44,193 nt of DNA from Parcubacteria group bacterium (lineage in GTDB: Bacteria; Patescibacteriota; Minisyncoccia; Minisyncoccales; UBA10102). The position numbers were made by a program, and so were the translations under genes. Positions 32,111-38,868 of this stretch are shown here, one piece after another. Positions within the stretch are counted from its first letter, which is position 1. Each line of letters opens with the position of its first letter. Under the pieces are notes generated by a model, which ran no database searches, had not been told where the DNA came from, and worked only from the letters and a program-made list of their open reading frames with translations. Location of the stretch: contig JACQLT010000001.1 in NCBI GenBank assembly GCA_016203945.1, forward strand, positions 72,645 through 116,837, in the 5' to 3' direction.

Positions 32111-32989
32111 TCAGCGCTTGAACATACGCCTGGCCAGGGCTTTCAAAAATAGGTATGCAAGGAACAGGGCGAACGCATACAGGATAATCTCGGTTTTCAG
32201 AACGAATGCGGCCGCAGAAAGAGAGGCAAGATAGAAAGAGGCCTTGGTTTTCTCCGTACTGTTTGCCTCGGGGTTTCCATTGAGAGTATCCAGCTGCTGC
32301 CTTGCTTGTTCTTGCTTCTGCTCTACCTGCTCTTTCACGGGAGCTAACAAACTTTGTGCCGCAGCATGAATCTCAGATATTGGTTTCTCAACTGCCTCAG
32401 GAAGCAGGGCTATGATCGTATCTGTTATATCGGTCTGTTCTGAAGGAACAGCGTTCTCTTCTTCGGAAATTGGCGAGGAAGCTGCAAGCGGATCCGTTCC
32501 TTCGCTGAGCTCCTGAGCATCTGATGTACCGTCGTTGTCGTCATCTGTATCCGTGTTGTTTCCGATCCCGTCCTTATCTGTATCCTTCTCAACCTGGCGC
32601 AAGCTTTCTTGCGCTCTTGCCTGCTGAAGCTCTATTGCGACCGGAGAACCTCCCACGCGTATGACAGAGACCTTTGTGATAACAGCTTCTATAAGGTGCT
32701 CCCCTTCAGTCGCGCTCCAGTCAACCCACACCTGCGTGAACTTGCCTCCGCGCTCCACAAAAAAATCAGATGACCCGATGGAGTTTTTGTTATCCAAAAA
32801 CTCAATGGCGCCTGCAATGTCTTCGCTCCCGCTGTTAAAAAGAGCCGCGTATACGCGAACCGTTTCTCCCGCAAAGAACGGGTCTTTTGAATACCAGATG
32901 CCTCCCTGCAGGAATCCCGCGTTGGAAAGAGGTTCGGCAAAAACAAACGCGGGAATAGCCAGGAAAAAAACCATGAGAAGCGTTTTCAT
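32111..32989 (-). CDS. Secreted protein with an Ig-like (CARDB-like) N-domain, a thrombospondin-type-3-like Asp-rich Ca-binding motif and a C-terminal TM anchor
   Basis: Signal peptide MKTLLMVFFLAIPAFVFA, DTDKDGIGNNTDTDDDNDGTSDAQE, and C-terminal hydrophobic helices. Confidence 0.65.
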   Translation of the reverse strand: MKTLLMVFFLAIPAFVFAEPLSNAGFLQGGIWYSKDPFFAGETVRVYAALFNSGSEDIAGAIEFLDNKNSIGSSDFFVERGGKFTQVWVDWSATEGEHLIEAVITKVSVIRVGGSPVAIELQQARAQESLRQVEKDTDKDGIGNNTDTDDDNDGTSDAQELSEGTDPLAASSPISEEENAVPSEQTDITDTIIALLPEAVEKPISEIHAAAQSLLAPVKEQVEQKQEQARQQLDTLNGNPEANSTEKTKASFYLASLSAAAFVLKTEIILYAFALFLAYLFLKALARRMFKR

Positions 32990-33045
32990 CTTGATACATC
33001 AAGTATAGCTTGAATATGGGGGCGTATCTACTATACTATATAGTG

Positions 33046-34005
33046 ATGAACGACTCTTTCTTCCAGTATCTGGGTCTTGAATTTGTACGCGTCACGGAGT
33101 TAGCGGCCATTTCAACGGCAAGATGGATTGGAAAAGGAGACAATAAAGCGGCCGATGCTGCTGCGGTAGACGCTATGCGCGAAGCTCTCAACCAAATTGA
33201 TTTTGCAGGAGAGATAGTAATCGGCGAAGGAGCAAAAGACGAATCCGCAGAGCTCTACATCGGCGAGAAAGTCGGCCGAGGCAATGGCCCTGTTCTTGAT
33301 ATCGCCGTTGATCCCCTGGAATGCACCAACAGCGTCGCCTACGGCAGGCCCAACGCCATAACCGTCATTGCCGTCGGTTCCCGGGGCTGTCTCTACAAAG
33401 CCGCGGACTCGTATATGGAAAAAATCGCGGTGAGCGGCCAAGCAAAAAACGTCGTTGATTTAGACGCGCCAGTCAAAGACAACATAGTTCGTGTCGCCAA
33501 GGCGCTTGGCAAAGACGTTTCTGAAATTACCGTTGCCATCCTTGACCGCGACCGGCATCAAGACCTCATTCAAGAAGTTCGCGCAGCAGGGGCCCGTGTC
33601 CAGCTTTTCACTGATGGAGACATTGCCATGGGACTTGCTCCCTGCCTGCAAGAGTCCCCGGTTGATATGCTCATGGGCATTGGCGGCAGCACCGAAGCCG
33701 TCATTGCGGCTACCGCTCTCAAATGCCTGAATGGAGAGATTCTCTGCCGATGGAAACCCAAAGACGAAACCCACATCAAAAGATTGCGCGCGGCCGGCAT
33801 CGCCGACTTTAATACGATCCTGACCGCCGAAGATTTGGCCAAGGGTCGCGATCTCGCTTTTGCCGCCACCGGCGTTCTCACTGGCCCCCTTCTTGAAGGC
33901 ATTACCTGGGCGCCAGAACGCATCATCACTCATACTATGGTCATATCGTCAAACCCTCAAACAATGAGAGTGATACGCACCGCCCATAACGCCATGAACG
34001 CATAA
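33046..34005 (+). CDS. glpX: Class II fructose-1,6-bisphosphatase
   Basis: LEFVRVTELAAISTARWIGKGDNKAADAAAVDAMR and DIAVDPLECTN. Start moved from TTG 33010 to ATG 33046 (MNDSFFQ). Confidence 0.9.
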   Translation: MNDSFFQYLGLEFVRVTELAAISTARWIGKGDNKAADAAAVDAMREALNQIDFAGEIVIGEGAKDESAELYIGEKVGRGNGPVLDIAVDPLECTNSVAYGRPNAITVIAVGSRGCLYKAADSYMEKIAVSGQAKNVVDLDAPVKDNIVRVAKALGKDVSEITVAILDRDRHQDLIQEVRAAGARVQLFTDGDIAMGLAPCLQESPVDMLMGIGGSTEAVIAATALKCLNGEILCRWKPKDETHIKRLRAAGIADFNTILTAEDLAKGRDLAFAATGVLTGPLLEGITWAPERIITHTMVISSNPQTMRVIRTAHNAMNA

Positions 34006-34009
34006 ATCC

Positions 34010-34909
34010 ATGCAAGAACTCTACATTTTGCCTTTTGATCATCGCGGTTCGTTTCTCAAAATGCTCGGTTTTTCGAAAAACGAGTTGACCGCAGAACAAA
34101 CTCAAAGGGTCTGCGACTACAAACACGTTATCTTCGAGGCCTTTCTGTTGTCGCTCCAAATGGGTGTACTGAAAGAAAAAGCCGCCGTCTTGGTAGACGA
34201 GCAATTCGGTTTAAAAATCCATCAAGAAGCAGAACACATGGGCATTACTCATATTTTGACCGCAGAAAAATCCGGCCAGGACGAATTTGACTTTGAATAC
34301 GGCAATGCATTCGGCGACCACATAGAACGCATTGATCCCGACTATGTGAAAGTTTTGGTTCGCTATAATCCTTTGGCAGACAGGGCAATGAACCTGCGAC
34401 AGTGCGATCGCTTAAAGATACTGAACGACTACTGCAAGAGCCGCGGATACAAGTTTCTTTTTGAACTTTTAGCTGTCCCTACGCCAGAACAAATGAGCGA
34501 GGCGGGAAACGATAAAGAAACATACGAACAATCTTTGAGGTGGCGCGTTATGGTTGAATCAATCAAAGAGCTGCAATCGCGCGGCATTGAACCCGACATC
34601 TGGAAAATTGAAGGGCTGAACGACACTGACCAAATGCAGGCCGTGATTGAGACCACTCGGCGCCAATCGCGCGATAAGGTGGGTGTTGTTGTCTTGGGCA
34701 GGGGCGAAAGCGAAGAAAAAGTTAAAACCTGGCTCTCTGTTGCGGCAAAAATCCCCGGAGTTGTCGGGTTTGCCGTGGGCCGCACCGTTTTCAAGCAACC
34801 TTTGCTGGACTTCTACGAAGGAAAAATAGACCGTCAATCCGCCACCCAAAAAATAGCCCAAAACTTCAAAGGTTTTGTTGATCTCTTCTCTGAAGCGCGC
34901 ACTCGGTAA
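34010..34909 (+). CDS. DUF2090-family protein (IolC-C-terminal-like, putative aldolase-type TIM barrel)
   Basis: YILPFDHRGSF N-terminal motif and ~300-aa length. Lies 4 nt after the glpX stop. Family assignment from memory. Confidence 0.6.
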   Translation: MQELYILPFDHRGSFLKMLGFSKNELTAEQTQRVCDYKHVIFEAFLLSLQMGVLKEKAAVLVDEQFGLKIHQEAEHMGITHILTAEKSGQDEFDFEYGNAFGDHIERIDPDYVKVLVRYNPLADRAMNLRQCDRLKILNDYCKSRGYKFLFELLAVPTPEQMSEAGNDKETYEQSLRWRVMVESIKELQSRGIEPDIWKIEGLNDTDQMQAVIETTRRQSRDKVGVVVLGRGESEEKVKTWLSVAAKIPGVVGFAVGRTVFKQPLLDFYEGKIDRQSATQKIAQNFKGFVDLFSEARTR

Positions 34910-34920
34910 TCATCGCGCTT

Positions 34921-34947
34921 TTGCCCTTACGGGGCGGGCAAGTTTTT
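34921..34947 (+). terminator. Rho-independent terminator after the glpX-DUF2090 pair
   Basis: TTGCCC-TTACGGGGC-GGGCAA followed by GTTTTT. Confidence 0.65.
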
Positions 34948-35060
34948 CCTATGCTCCGTAGTGAAACAAAGCTTCTACTACTGGGGTTTGGCGGCAAATT
35001 CTAAACCAAATCCTTTTTCTTTTCTTCAAACTCTTCCTTGTCTATCTCGCCTTTGGCGTA

Positions 35061-35690
35061 TCACTCCTTCAGAACATCGATTGCGGATTTTTCATGATTG
35101 TGCGTGCCGCGCGATTGGCTTGTGAGCCATTTGATAAGCGCGACAATGCCCGCGATTATCAAGACCCACCACAAAACCATAAATATCCAGCTGAAACCGC
35201 CAAAGAGTCCGAATCCAAAGTTCATCATATTGTTTGTTGAATTATTATTGCCGAAGGGAGACGACCAACCTCCCCACATCATATTCATCATCGGCATCCA
35301 GCCGCCGCTTCCAGCCGGAAACGCCGCCGACGTGTCGCAACCGGAAAGCCGCTTACCCATGACCATGTGAATCTGCTCCTCGCCGTCTTCGCCGTGCGCC
35401 TGAATCATCATGGCATTCATGGCGGCGTGCGACTCGCCAGCCATTTGCCCCATAAAGTACTCGCCGAGTACCCCAAATTGTTCATCGCTTAAATTCTCGC
35501 AAGCGACCTCTTTTGTTTGGAGTTTATCCCAAAGCTCTTTGCCTCCTTGTTCTTCGCGGAGTGTGTGCTCAACGACTTCTTCCCAATCTGCCGTAGAGTT
35601 GGAAAAGCCACCCATCATCTGGGCGTTTGCTATTGCGACAAACGAACCAACGACGATTAGGACAAGAATTGTAAAAATAAGTTTTTTCAT
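35061..35690 (-). CDS. Exported Met/Gly-rich membrane protein whose C-terminal SHOCT domain is cut by an in-frame TGA
   Basis: Signal peptide, Met-rich stretches (GGWMPMMNMMWGGW), a TM helix, then ...SAIDVLKE-stop. The next 19 in-frame codons (35004-35060) read YAKGEIDKEEFEEKKKDLV. Confidence 0.75.
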   Translation of the reverse strand: MKKLIFTILVLIVVGSFVAIANAQMMGGFSNSTADWEEVVEHTLREEQGGKELWDKLQTKEVACENLSDEQFGVLGEYFMGQMAGESHAAMNAMMIQAHGEDGEEQIHMVMGKRLSGCDTSAAFPAGSGGWMPMMNMMWGGWSSPFGNNNSTNNMMNFGFGLFGGFSWIFMVLWWVLIIAGIVALIKWLTSQSRGTHNHEKSAIDVLKE

Positions 35691-35717
35691 TGTAAGATAA
35701 TGCCGAGTTTCATAAAA

Positions 35718-35840
35718 TTATTTCAGCAAATCTTCCATTGGAACACCCAATGCTTTGGCAATTTTTGCCATCAAGAGTTCGCTACGACGCTGCGGTGAAA
35801 TTATATCCTTTGCGCGAACCTTTTTCGAGAACCCACCGGC
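35718..35840 (-). pseudogene. 3' fragment of an XRE-family HTH gene (last ~40 codons only)
   Basis: The frame open between TGA (35841-35843) and TAA (35718-35720) reads AGGFSKKVRAKDIISPQRRSELLMAKIAKALGVPMEDLLK. This matches the C-terminal half of an HTH_3 domain. There is no N-terminal half and no start. Confidence 0.6.
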
Positions 35841-35863
35841 TCACTGACGCTCGCCGGACGCTC

Positions 35864-35934
35864 GGGCGTGGCGGAATTCCCCCCACACCCCCCTTCCGCC
35901 GCGCCCTCGCTTGGACGGACGGAATTTTCGGCGG
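35864..35934 (+). repeat. Left copy of a ~72-bp GC-rich structured repeat (GGCGTGGCGGAAT-Cn-ACACCCCCCTTCCGCCGCGCCCTCGCTTGG...AATTTTCGGCGG)
   Basis: Aligns to the reverse complement of 38547-38619 with a few substitutions and indels. It has an internal 10-bp stem GGCGTGGCGG/CCGCCGCGCC. Confidence 0.85.
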
Positions 35935-35941
35935 CTGACTA

Positions 35942-37609
35942 CTATTTAATATCACAAAATTGCTCTCCTGTAGTCATCAAGTAATCCCATACAACATAAC
36001 TATTTATATACTTAATCTCACTTTCTGACAGGTTGAAAATATTTTGATTAATGTATTTTTGTAAGTACTCGTCATTTGATCTTTGCACGGCATCCTTAGT
36101 CAATTCTTTTATCACAGAATTTTCCTCAGCAGTAATGCCAGGAAAAGGGAGTGCCATCAGACTTTCTTTGGCAATCTTGTTTACTCCACCGAATAATTTT
36201 AAATGTAAATACGAGTATAAATTAGAATTCAAAAATGCCATGACCGTATAAATATCAAAGTCTGAGATTTTAGGAATAATTATATTTGCACTATTACTCG
36301 TCAATGATCCAGTTGTATCTATGGCGACTTTTAGATATTTATTTATGGTTTTATATACGAGCTTCTTAGATGCTCTGTATATTTCATCGGGCGCAACTTG
36401 TTGTAAGTTGTTCCTATCAAAAACAATATAGTTCTTTGGGGAGAGAAGTTTATACTTTTCAACTTCTTTTCCAGTATAGATATGTTCTGCGCCCGAAATT
36501 TTCTGGTCCAGTAATTTAGTTTTGTTATCACCAGTAACTACTCCTAAACCAAAAATGCTGCGAGATAAATCATATTTCTTTAGCTTATTAACCTTTTCAA
36601 TAATTGCTATATCCTGCTCGGTTAGGTGGACAAAAATGTGATTTTGGAAACCTTTAAATAAATCTTTTGGAATAACTGTTGTAATTTTATTTACAAATAG
36701 CATTTGATTACTTTTCGCGTGGTTCAACTCAATCAAATAAACATCGGACATTACTCCAGAAAATTTCTTTGAGTACCTCTTGATTTTCTTTAGATTAGTT
36801 TGTCCGAGTATAAAATCTCTGATATCAGTATGCCTTTTGACATTCAATAATGCTTCAGGCAGTAGATATCTAAACACACCATCTTTCTTTAGTAATTTAT
36901 ATCCAAACTCAATAAAATAAGAAAAACTTTCTCCGGACATTACGTGCTCCGTGGGAATTTTAGACAAATCCAAATTAGCACCATATGGCGGGTTGCTAAT
37001 GATGTAATCAAATCTTAAATTTTTATTTTTTAGAAACCATACGAAAAAGTCATCACAATAAAGATTCGGTGATTTTGCCGTAGGAAATTTGATGAAGTAA
37101 TTAAATTTTGCAATCATTATCGCAATCGGATCGTTGTCAATTCCAAATATCTGATCCGACGGCGCGTTAGAACGGAACAGGAATGATCCCGATCCGCAAG
37201 CTGGATCAAAAATGATTTGCCCAGAAGAAAAATCCAAATCGCCGACAAAATCTTCTGCTATTTCACCACCGGTATAGAAAGACCCTTTTTCTAGATTTTC
37301 CTTTTTCGAGTTTAGATATTGATAGGCTGACCCCAATAAATCAAATTCATTCCTTGAGATATTCCCAATCGCAATTATTTTATAGTCATATTCGGAAAGA
37401 AATTGTTTTACTGCCGGATTTTTATTCCCTTTCAATAGTTGGCACCCGATTGAAAATAATAGTTGTTCTTTTGGGACATTGAAATCCAGCAAAGACTGCA
37501 AAAAGTGAACAACGCCCGCTTCCTTTATGTTGTGAATTGGAATTGTGTGCTCAGAATTTAATCTGAGGTGTTTAGATCGGTTTTGTATTGTTGTGTTTTT
37601 TACTAACAT
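35942..37609 (-). CDS. N6-adenine DNA methyltransferase, gamma class (Eco57I/TaqI-like) with a C-terminal target-recognition domain
   Basis: Motif I IIFDPACGSGSFLF, motif IV IISNPPYGANLD, and a long C-terminal TRD. 555 aa. Confidence 0.88.
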   Translation of the reverse strand: MLVKNTTIQNRSKHLRLNSEHTIPIHNIKEAGVVHFLQSLLDFNVPKEQLLFSIGCQLLKGNKNPAVKQFLSEYDYKIIAIGNISRNEFDLLGSAYQYLNSKKENLEKGSFYTGGEIAEDFVGDLDFSSGQIIFDPACGSGSFLFRSNAPSDQIFGIDNDPIAIMIAKFNYFIKFPTAKSPNLYCDDFFVWFLKNKNLRFDYIISNPPYGANLDLSKIPTEHVMSGESFSYFIEFGYKLLKKDGVFRYLLPEALLNVKRHTDIRDFILGQTNLKKIKRYSKKFSGVMSDVYLIELNHAKSNQMLFVNKITTVIPKDLFKGFQNHIFVHLTEQDIAIIEKVNKLKKYDLSRSIFGLGVVTGDNKTKLLDQKISGAEHIYTGKEVEKYKLLSPKNYIVFDRNNLQQVAPDEIYRASKKLVYKTINKYLKVAIDTTGSLTSNSANIIIPKISDFDIYTVMAFLNSNLYSYLHLKLFGGVNKIAKESLMALPFPGITAEENSVIKELTKDAVQRSNDEYLQKYINQNIFNLSESEIKYINSYVVWDYLMTTGEQFCDIK

Positions 37610-38198
37610 GTTGCTCTGATAACTCTTTGTATATATCCGTCATTTCTTGATAGGTAACGGTATCTTTCAGGTTATTATCCAAATGCCACTGTATGTTGCT
37701 CTTGGTTATGCCAAATTGGCCGCTTTTACCCACCTCATCATAACGTCCATGCCTATCGCTCCAATTAGAAAATTTTCCAGTGGAAATATCTTCTCTCCTC
37801 GCCAAGAATATTTTAACACAATCCCCAAAAAGCAGAACATATATGAGGTAATCAAAGTGATCCCTTTTTACATTTTGGACATTAGCCAAATACTCAGCCG
37901 TTTTGCACTCGCTAAACGGAACTAGCCGATTCGTTTCTAGGTTATTATTTTCGAACAGTATCCTTTCTATTATTGTTTTTAGTTTTTTCACATTACCAGA
38001 TGCTTTAAGAACCTTGCATGCCTTTATCTCGTATCGTTTACCGTCTTGGTCTGTTGCATCGTGATCATTTCCTTTCGGTTCATTGAGGTTATATTTCTCT
38101 CGCACAAACGGCTCAACATACTGCTCGCCGTAAGACCTGCTAGGGGCAAGAAAAAGACCATCGCGAATTTTCTTTACAATGTCGTCAATAATTTCCAT
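37572..38198 (-). CDS. Putative type II restriction endonuclease (PD-(D/E)xK candidate)
   Basis: A 208-aa orphan lying between the controller and the methyltransferase. DATDQDGKRYEIKACK fits D...ExK. Overlaps the methyltransferase start by 38 nt. Confidence 0.55.
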   Translation of the reverse strand: MEIIDDIVKKIRDGLFLAPSRSYGEQYVEPFVREKYNLNEPKGNDHDATDQDGKRYEIKACKVLKASGNVKKLKTIIERILFENNNLETNRLVPFSECKTAEYLANVQNVKRDHFDYLIYVLLFGDCVKIFLARREDISTGKFSNWSDRHGRYDEVGKSGQFGITKSNIQWHLDNNLKDTVTYQEMTDIYKELSEQHVSKKHNNTKPI

Positions 38199-38199
38199 A

Positions 38200-38421
38200 T
38201 TATTTTAGAAAGAAACCTAAATCTTTCTTATAAATTCGCGCGAACTCTTTAAGCGCAACGATATCAATACGCCTCTGTCCGGCTTCTACTTTTGAGACAT
38301 GAGACTGTGTCTTTCCGAGCAATTTAGCTACATCCGCCTGATCTAAACCGGTCTCTTGTCGAGCTTTCCTTAACTGCTCGACTGTATATTTATGGTCTTT
38401 TGAGTAAATTGCTTTACTCAT
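38200..38421 (-). CDS. XRE-family HTH protein, likely R-M controller (C) protein
   Basis: 73 aa, with LRKARQETGLDQADVAKLLGKTQSHVSKVEAGQRRIDIVALKEFARIY. Its stop is 1 nt before the endonuclease start. Confidence 0.75.
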   Translation of the reverse strand: MSKAIYSKDHKYTVEQLRKARQETGLDQADVAKLLGKTQSHVSKVEAGQRRIDIVALKEFARIYKKDLGFFLK

Positions 38422-38434
38422 AGTGATAATTATA

Positions 38435-38461
38435 TGTTAGTATTCCATTGTGTTATATTCC
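38435..38461 (-). promoter_or_regulatory. Candidate operator upstream of the controller gene: two 11-12-nt direct repeats GGAATA(T/C)(A/T)AACA separated by 4 nt, overlapping the promoter (TATAAT 8 nt before the ATG)
   Basis: Gene strand ttGGAATATAACAcaatGGAATACTAACAtaTAATtatcactATG. Confidence 0.4.
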
Positions 38462-38546
38462 AAATTGTCATATAATAATCGAGGGGGTTCCGCTAACTTG
38501 CCCGCGCACTGGGAGGGTGGGGTAGGAGCAAGATTTCAAAATAGCT

Positions 38547-38619
38547 CCGCCAAAAAATTCGCCAGCCCAAGCGAGGGCGCGGCGGAAGGGGGGTGTGGGG
38601 GGGGATTCCGCCACGCCTC
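38547..38619 (-). repeat. Right copy of the ~72-bp structured repeat, starting 13 nt after the tRNA-Ser 3' end; in this orientation it looks like the tRNA terminator (stem plus AATTTTTTGG)
   Basis: The reverse complement reads GAGGCGTGGCGGAATCCCCCCCCACACCCCCCTTCCGCCGCGCCCTCGCTTGGGCTGGCGAATTTTTTGGCGG. Confidence 0.85.
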
Positions 38620-38632
38620 GTGAAGTTTCTAT

Positions 38633-38722
38633 TGGCGGTGGGGGAGAGATTCGAACTCTCGATGCCCTTTCGGACATAGCTGCTCTCCAAGCAGCCGCAC
38701 TAGGCCACTATGCGACCCCACC
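38633..38722 (-). tRNA. tRNA-Ser (anticodon GGA), long variable arm, CCA encoded
   Basis: GGTGGGGTCGCATAGTGGCCTAGTGCGGCTGCTTGGAGAGCAGCTATGTCCGAAAGGGCATCGAGAGTTCGAATCTCTCCCCCACCGCCA. Anticodon loop UUGGAGA, variable-arm hairpin, 90 nt. Confidence 0.92.
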
Positions 38723-38724
38723 AT

Positions 38725-38823
38725 GAGCGTTTTTCCCTGGGTATTGACCCCAGGAATCTCCTCAACCCAAGCAAGATACCACTTACCCCGCTTTTTATAG
38801 ACGGCAGTGAATGTCTGTTTCAT
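38725..38823 (-). pseudogene. 5' fragment of a HicB-like (UPF0150) antitoxin gene, cut off 2 nt before the tRNA-Ser 5' end
   Basis: MKQTFTAVYKKRGKWYLAWVEEIPGVNTQGKTL matches the HicB N-terminal beta-sheet motif (PG..TQG.T). The track ORF 38629..38862 simply reads on through the tRNA. Confidence 0.55.
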
Positions 38824-38868
38824 AGAATATATTGTATCGCAATGTAGAGTCGATTGCAACAAAACGAG

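Follow-up and report, generated by a model that had tools for sequence, protein, structure and literature searches.

The locus described here is a restriction-modification (R-M) cassette that lies between inverted repeats beside a tRNA-Ser(GGA) gene, in a 44,193-nucleotide (nt) stretch of the genome of a Parcubacteria group bacterium (the window: positions 72,645-116,837 of contig JACQLT010000001.1, in an assembly of 478 kb that is 92% complete and has 50% GC). The cassette comprises three co-linear genes on the minus strand, C, R and M; the repeats, which we call arms, point inward from either side, and the right arm begins at the 3′ end of the tRNA gene. From a comparison with relatives and public contigs we think it likely that the locus is a cargo module, now stranded, that belongs to a family of tRNA-targeting serine-recombinase integrative elements widespread in the Candidate Phyla Radiation (CPR)/Patescibacteria.

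A predicted C-R-M cassette and its inverted arms

The first gene of the operon (38200-38421, minus strand) encodes a C controller protein of 73 residues with an XRE-type helix-turn-helix, which matches Pfam HTH_3 (1.4e-12) and PADLOC Control_protein (7.8e-6) and has C.BclI and C.AhdI as relatives in the Protein Data Bank (PDB; E ~1e-3). A promoter scan placed a promoter-like site ahead of this gene (38456->38429), and the C protein may time expression of the endonuclease from this promoter of its own. The last gene (M, 35942-37609, minus strand), which overlaps R by 38 nt, encodes a gamma-class N6-adenine DNA methyltransferase of 555 residues with a TaqI-like C-terminal specificity domain; its translation carries the motifs DPACGSGSF and NPPYG and matches Pfam N6_Mtase (1.6e-17), Eco57I (7.9e-16) and TaqI_C (1.4e-18), as well as PADLOC MTase_II (3.2e-59).

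Between them, R (37572-38198, minus strand) encodes a restriction endonuclease candidate of 208 residues that has no Pfam match. At least 230 homologues share 57-85% identity with it, none of them named, and residues D47, E57 and K59 (D47/E57-I58-K59) are invariant across them. Its AlphaFold model (pLDDT 88.9) has a PvuII/NhoI-like PD-(D/E)xK fold: the top PDB matches in Foldseek were NhoI, PvuII, Eco15I-N and DpnI, at E 8e-4 and with TM scores of only 0.40-0.54. The same type of methyltransferase always follows the R homologues, and the R and M gene pair is kept in CPR bacteria and in one actinobacterium. This family of endonucleases with a PvuII-like fold has neither a name nor a Pfam model. 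As in the C-controlled Type II systems PvuII, BclI and AhdI, a C protein lies upstream of a small PD-(D/E)xK endonuclease and is accompanied by an N6-adenine methyltransferase; unlike in those systems, the three genes of the cassette are all co-linear, R and M overlap, and the endonuclease belongs to a family that Pfam does not model. The cassette is a C-R-M Type II R-M system, its activity being predicted from its genes.

By composition, the cassette is foreign DNA. Its GC content (35942-38421) is 35.2% where the genome averages 50.4 ± 2.5% (z -6.1); none of the 1855 windows across the whole assembly lies lower, and the cassette genes deviate at third codon positions (GC3 z -3.0 to -4.0), whereas flanking genes are normal. 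An earlier reading of this DNA from its letters alone (the sequence-only reading) had reported a fall in GC from about one-half to about one-third over three co-linear genes, an XRE controller, a 208-residue PD-ExK-like protein and a gamma N6-adenine methyltransferase; the formal composition windows bear out the fall, and coordinates, domains and fold agree for the genes. An identical M protein occurs in three other sequencing runs (SRR12113430, SRR12113422 and SRR12113420). In Logan contigs of those runs (L213-L215; here and below, L labels loci of public contigs and G the genomes of 60 relatives), the cassette lies on pieces of 2.1-2.6 kb that end inside or just before the arms, and many endonuclease homologues likewise sit on contigs of 2-3 kb.

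The docking site, tRNA-Ser(GGA) (38633-38722, minus strand; ARAGORN, and Rfam tRNA at 52.8 bits), has its 3′ end toward the right arm. An ARAGORN run at default settings missed this gene; another tRNA search and Rfam found it.

The left, tRNA-distal arm (~35797-35934, plus strand) was recognised as one side of the inverted repeat, its outer limit coming from alignment with the copies of other genomes. Its outer block holds an outward promoter-like site found by the promoter scan (TCGAAA-17-TATAAT, 35828->35800), followed by a main hairpin (35864-35906) with a 13-bp stem, supported by stem covariation, and the loop TTCCCCCCACACCCCCC; the tail AATTTTCGGCGG lies on the inner side of this hairpin. 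The right, tRNA-proximal arm (38470-38632, minus strand) was delimited by the inverted repeat, an inner block and a terminator-like site. From the tRNA inward it consists of what remains of an outer block, 13 nt (AATAGAAACTTCAC, 38620-38632) homologous to the first part of the L179 outer block, then the main hairpin (38575-38618), a small hairpin with a T-run (38574-38550) and an inner conserved hairpin block (38498-38533); an internal deletion of ~50 nt in the outer block lies between the 13-nt remnant and the main hairpin. The inner region of this arm (38480-38546) is common to copies in two relatives (G008, contig C26, and G014, contig C10). Both arms contain the core GGCGGAAT-C-rich loop-TTCCGCC, with a loop of 17-18 nt and a main stem whose 13 bp include one G·U pair. 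They form an inverted repeat of 56 nt at 89% identity (35879-35934 with 38547-38602), extended by 35865-35893 with 38589-38617, and 36 nt are exactly the same in both.

These features revise the sequence-only reading in part. It had seen inverted, inward-pointing copies of ~72 bp, each with a 10-bp GC stem and a C-rich loop followed by a T-run: orientation and loop stand, while both arms are longer (the left one starts at ~35797, and the right one includes the inner block and has lost ~50 nt), the stem has 13 bp, and the T-run follows a second, small hairpin. It had also placed the right copy 13 nt past tRNA-Ser; the spacing is correct, and those 13 nt are themselves the outer-block remnant of the arm. 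On the tRNA strand, the small hairpin (38574-38559) is followed by ATTTTTT, with the large hairpin ~18 nt upstream of the T-run. The right arm has the features of an intrinsic terminator there and can serve as the tRNA terminator that had been proposed, a predicted function in which it would end the tRNA-Ser transcript and shield the cassette from read-in. The left copy had been thought to have no gene to terminate; it lies 8 nt past the M stop codon, and its hairpin would follow the M gene on the transcript while its outward promoter-like site would face the gene for a 209-residue membrane protein.

A third, solo copy of the arm lies elsewhere in the same genome (contig C3:22983-23100). It has a complete outer block with a perfect 16-bp palindrome, AGAATTATATAATTCT, lies 1.5 kb from a tRNA-Lys(ttt) gene and overlaps the 3′ part of an open reading frame (ORF) of 140 residues. 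None of the families in Rfam matches the arms.

A wrong join during assembly or binning, in which a low-GC contig of another organism was attached at a shared repeat, is the explanation to which we give least credence. The sequence does come from a metagenome assembly, the GC break is sharp, and the arms have 36 nt exactly in common; however, arms that differ (89% identity) and are inverted are not the product of a graph join, the junction between arm and tRNA is homologous to that of L179, also a tRNA-Ser(GGA) locus, many studies and assemblers have yielded this same architecture, one instance being on a 601-kb contig, and a cassette with the identical M protein was assembled in the three other runs.

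Arms, cargo and serine recombinases across the CPR

A pattern search with the arm core retrieved at least 119 public genome contigs, nearly all labelled CPR and from ~20 named CPR candidate phyla, and the same search of IMG/VR retrieved four stretches; organism names are as labelled, and they cover most lineages of CPR/Patescibacteria plus a few oddly labelled bins. In a BLAST-type search, the arm was found in 11 of the 60 relatives and in neither of two genomes of the same genus. Further copies in the genome and its relatives, for which the sequence-only reading had proposed a search, therefore exist, as the solo copy on contig C3 also shows, and the repeat is not confined to this locus. Between genera, arms are 84-94% identical as DNA where proteins are ~60-65% identical. 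All 21 two-core loci among the matches listed are inward-facing +/- pairs, and the pair in the window is likewise arranged (left arm +, right arm -). Elsewhere, paired arms span 92-299 nt; many pairs are 100% identical, and most of those measured show 95-100% identity; the window arms fall below that, at 89% over 56 nt plus the ~50-nt deletion. Contigs break at arms, and many copies lie at contig ends.

A recurrent layout is evident in these copies: a 13-bp GC hairpin with a near-invariant C-rich loop, an inner small hairpin with a T-run, and a variable outer block. The folding energy of single copies is unexceptional (z -0.7 to -2.2); the hairpin is supported because its stem covaries across copies. 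At one pair of positions outside the search pattern we counted CG 15, GC 11, UA 6, AU 5 and UG 2, and across the stem 92% of cells are paired against ~50% for slid partners, with a covariation score that none of 500 shuffles reached. The G·U-compatible changes are confined to the inward-reading strand.

What travels between the arms varies. The arm pairs enclose 1.4-6.9 kb, and in a survey of ~25 loci by ORF lists and domain matches R-M systems were present in 7 of 15, the window among them. The earlier proposal of a defence cassette framed by a repeat family holds. One locus holds a close homologue of the window C protein with an N6/N4 methyltransferase (L211), and others hold a C5 methyltransferase (L107), a TaqI-type endonuclease with an N6/N4 methyltransferase (L101), Type I-like genes (L163), a methyltransferase with an HsdS-like gene (G008), or an HNH protein with a methyltransferase (G009, where a single arm was seen). 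Further cargo includes an XRE-headed set with an SDH protease (G040), an ArsR-headed, MerA-like redox operon (L158) and single genes for a major facilitator superfamily (MFS) transporter, an aldolase-like enzyme and a peptidase (L171, L190 and G013); the remaining framed cargo includes genes with no assigned function. Close homologues of the C protein head two of these cassettes, G040 and L211. The latter, IMGVR_UViG_3300007351_000551 (4386 nt), is filed as viral; it consists of one arm-cargo-arm module that carries a C-R-M set, and its ORFs include no viral genes. Another locus (L052; G014 contig C10, 4966-5930) has two back-to-back XRE-headed cassettes separated by arm copies and is a candidate for stacked modules. 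We considered whether short-spaced arm pairs (1.4-1.8 kb) are recombinase modules and rejected this; they contain single ordinary genes.

The gene that recurs next to the arms encodes a large serine recombinase of 510-570 residues with the Pfam domains Resolvase, Recombinase and Zn_ribbon_recom. It adjoins an arm in G040, L107, L163, L116, L101, L208, L174, L178 and L186, and lies between arms in L143; L146 was assigned to the same arrangement by its tRNA-Gln and L143-like spacing, its ORFs being unread. Among the relatives, the recombinase occurs in 7 of 11 genomes with the arm and in 11 of 49 without it (odds ratio 6.0, p 0.012). In 8 of 11 recombinase loci, wherever a tRNA was in view, the recombinase and tRNA genes converge, 3′ end toward 3′ end, as in L208, where the order is arm, recombinase, tRNA-Ser(GGA). 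Several other framed cassettes have no recombinase nearby. No phage, conjugation or replication genes were present among the ORFs of the module or of the relatives read.

The arms themselves are also linked to tRNA genes. Distances to the nearest tRNA, tabulated by hand for 137 cores, are at most 450 nt for 18 cores (6% expected, p 0.0025), and in 12 of these 18 the 3′ end of the tRNA faces the outer end of the arm; for 12 further cores a tRNA 3′ end is 1.6-2.0 kb away, a distance equal to the length of a recombinase module, and a recombinase was verified in the gap in six of them. Two inverted pairs, each perfect, stand end to end in L107 (Harrisonbacteria contig JAHFLF010000001) and G040: A-cargo-A′ comes first and B-recombinase-B′ second, with an overlap of 3-4 nt between A′ and B, and the terminus of the tRNA, CCACCA or CACCA, is where B′ ends. 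The last 4 nt of tRNA-Gln form the start of the L143 arm, and the arm limits in L107, G040 and L143 coincide with the last 4-6 nt of the tRNA. The neighbouring tRNA is tRNA-Ser(GGA) in eight cases (including L122, L133, L152, L179, L208, G012 and G021), and in L179, L152 and L122 the arm sits directly on it, as in the window.

The family therefore combines a conserved frame with variable cargo, docks at tRNA ends and is linked to a serine recombinase. In other genomes, either an arm sits straight on the tRNA end or the recombinase gene intervenes, converging on the tRNA. We suggest that this recombinase carries modules to tRNA 3′ ends. Joined module ends may form a palindromic site suited to a recombinase dimer, and a distal end that imitates a tRNA end would allow modules to stack.

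Several properties of the arms would also suit a purely regulatory origin, in which they are lineage-wide terminator or insulator modules after tRNAs and operons, and foreign cassettes enter by homologous recombination between such conserved modules after DNA uptake, which corresponds to the recombination between terminator-like repeats that the sequence-only reading had raised. The hairpin and T-run lie on the strand read from outside, and only on that strand are the changes G·U-compatible; the right arm follows a tRNA, the unequal arms of the window could have two sources, and the same R-M pair also travels without arms. We nevertheless regard this origin as improbable. The distribution is patchy, down to the absence from both same-genus genomes; arms are far more alike between genera than proteins are; the arms of one element can be 100% identical over up to 299 nt; all 21 pairs among the matches listed face inward; the link to a serine recombinase is strong; and contigs break at arms.

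The order arm-cargo-arm-recombinase in turn resembles G/Gin and C/Cin, and the arms carry outward promoter-like sites, as might be expected if they were the sites of a DNA invertase and flipping of the segment, like that of the Mu G segment by Gin, switched expression of the cargo or its neighbours. This is very unlikely to be their role: the cargo operon diverges from the recombinase in 9 of 9 loci in which a recombinase adjoins an arm pair or single arm and the cargo was read, a single orientation was seen, the cargos have regulators and promoters of their own, the enzyme is a large serine recombinase of 510-570 residues and not a small invertase, and the window genome has none.

The sequence-only reading had named a MITE-like origin (miniature inverted-repeat transposable element) as one possibility. 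In mobile insertion cassettes and MITEs, such as MIC231 of Bacillus cereus, passenger genes lie between inverted repeats with no internal transposase, and presumably move in trans. Were the arms the terminal inverted repeats of a DDE-type insertion sequence acting in trans, their position on either side of passenger genes, the existence of solo arms (contig C3) and the many copies at contig ends would follow. This origin did not hold up, and we now give it little chance: there is no DDE transposase inside or beside the ~20 arm loci read and no significant target-site duplication, arms of 92-299 nt far exceed the ends of insertion sequences, and the recurrent neighbouring gene encodes a serine recombinase. 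The CPR modules thus differ from mobile insertion cassettes in lacking a cognate DDE transposase and a target duplication, in their longer arms and in their link to serine recombinases and tRNAs.

State and flanks of the window locus

Neither a recombinase nor a transposase is encoded in the region or in the assembly (the sequence-only reading had noted the lack of an integrase or transposase), and a search of the source genome (the 92%-complete assembly) for a serine recombinase of this kind gave no match at E <= 1e-5. That reading had also contrasted the locus with tRNA-integrating islands. The contrast does not survive comparison with the other copies, in which the same arms frame the cargo of recombinase elements that converge on tRNA 3′ ends; the window locus is probably an unusually built integrative element that is tied to a tRNA gene and has decayed. 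We read the difference between the arms and the deletion in the right arm as decay, and with unequal arms, the loss of ~50 nt and no recombinase, the window copy can probably no longer move on its own. The locus is, as we read it, a stranded, decaying module in a tRNA-linked hot spot. It is possible that its asymmetric pair arose by recombination between the arms of two different elements.

In a sister species (G002, L216 and L217; 90% protein identity), the genes for HtpX and a zinc-ribbon protein and tRNA-Ser are followed by genes for proteins of 521 and 202 residues, with neither arm nor cassette at tRNA-Ser. A glycosidase-like gene (the one for 521 residues) and a nitroreductase gene stand in place of window positions 33000-38868, and the next gene in common encodes a 296-residue protein (32114-32998 in the window). 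The only nearby plus-strand genes of the window, glpX and a DUF2090 gene, sit within the replaced stretch.

A number of observations weigh against a module delivered by a recombinase. The sister species differs throughout 33000-38868, which argues for a replaced variable region rather than a precise, clean insertion. Neither excision, a circular form nor a clean empty site was seen in the assembled contigs. The search for an empty site found no record of the exact flank protein, and a metagenome scan returned only the sister-species loci, with their different downstream region. The 6-nt direct repeat GCGGTG at both ends, considered as a target duplication or att core, is not significant (29% of shuffles). 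Homologues of the R-M pair also occur without arms, so that frame and cargo are separable; several recombinase genes have an upstream region with no arm, and adjacency is thus not constant; the recombinase of this genome could lie in the missing 8% of the assembly; and in the 119-contig set the search pattern itself partly forces the invariance of the inner stem and loop. Taken with these points, a stranded module of a tRNA-targeting family remains the account that we consider likely.

Beyond the tRNA lies a remnant of a hicB-like antitoxin gene (38723-38823, minus strand; Pfam UPF0150-like), truncated at residue 33, where it meets the 5′ end of tRNA-Ser. Its homologues (71-88% identity) are stand-alone ORFs of 73-80 residues, one of which, a 73-residue HicB, is paired with a 64-residue HicA; in the sister species, the gene is absent at the corresponding position. 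The remnant is a flank scar outside the cassette. Another truncated hicB-like copy lies ~110 nt from an arm fragment on contig C7 of G041. Just outside the left arm is a possible C-terminal remnant of an XRE gene (35710-35796, minus strand), a tentative assignment based on a translation ending in ...SPQRRSELLMAKIAKALGVPMEDLLK* and a weak Pfam match (HTH_26, E 0.14). We considered a split hicB-xre gene and ruled it out; intact hicB-like homologues stand alone with no XRE domain, and the XRE piece is itself weak.

Next to the XRE piece, a Met-rich membrane protein of 209 residues (35061-35690, minus strand) is 79% identical to a protein of another genus (G017) and ~55% identical to those of two same-genus genomes; it has no SHOCT-like tail, which the 228-residue G017 protein keeps. 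A foreign origin of tRNA-Ser was ruled out; the window tRNA resembles those of other genera of the family, and it is the sister species that has an odd one. Loss of a recombinase from between tRNA-Ser and the right arm was dropped, as the arm begins, like that of L179, with the 13 nt past the tRNA. A TTGGCGG core bracketing the right arm (38547-38553, minus; 38632-38638, plus) fits by position, but the 7-mer is a frequent one, with 12 occurrences in the window where 7.7 are expected.

Related systems and bearing on CPR biology

Large serine recombinases are known from integrative elements and prophages, as the phiC31, Bxb1 and A118 integrases, and from the SCCmec cassette chromosomes with their Ccr recombinases. 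Like those elements, intact CPR relatives of the window locus encode a protein with Resolvase, Recombinase and zinc-ribbon domains, and the CPR modules use one kind of site, the 3′ end of a conserved gene, and carry accessory cargo. Unlike them, the CPR modules target many different tRNA genes, perfect inverted hairpin arms of 92-299 nt frame their cargo and, separately in some copies, the recombinase gene, modules abut with overlaps of 3-4 nt, and the window copy has no recombinase. Many unrelated and often single-gene modules bounded by a folded, structure-conserved site are also reminiscent of integron cassettes; in integrons, however, attC sites are direct, one to a cassette, and the recombinase is the tyrosine recombinase IntI, whereas CPR modules have two inverted arms and a serine recombinase. 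On these grounds of inverted arms and a linked serine recombinase they are not integrons, though no search was aimed at IntI.

The SCC elements are cassette carriers with short terminal inverted repeats (PMC6222049). Tycheposons of Prochlorococcus are cargo shuttles found in streamlined genomes, with tRNA genes as the integration sites at which variable islands are built up; they are defined by a lineage of tyrosine integrases and replication hallmark genes, and are bounded by direct repeats of partial tRNAs (10.1101/2020.12.28.424599). The CPR modules are similar in that they are cargo at the tRNA genes of small genomes, and different in having no replication module, a serine recombinase and inverted arms; their ORF lists do not show the defining features of tycheposons. 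A full-text literature search found no description of such elements in CPR bacteria, serine-recombinase cassette chromosomes and tycheposons being the nearest concepts, and the family is apparently unpublished.

A broader proposal, to which we give rather less than even weight, is that these modules form a phylum-spanning platform of serine-recombinase cassettes, in which autonomous modules that bring the recombinase and others with cargo only, all with long inverted arms whose termini mimic tRNA 3′ ends and a perfect-palindrome attP joint, stack behind tRNAs. If true, such a platform would be a functional counterpart of the integron with a different chemistry and a main route of defence-gene trade in tiny genomes, and the window would be an end state in which cargo is retained and the machinery is gone.

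CPR bacteria have tiny genomes with few recognised mobile elements, yet are rich in R-M systems. If our reading of the family is right, a common frame that carries R-M systems and other accessory genes to tRNA sites would explain the exchange of defence genes across most CPR lineages, and the family would provide a compact set of tRNA-targeting serine recombinases whose sites are defined. For annotation, the arms offer an inexpensive way to flag acquired cargo and contig breaks in CPR assemblies. The window locus contributes a decayed member, whose cargo has outlived the functions for mobility.

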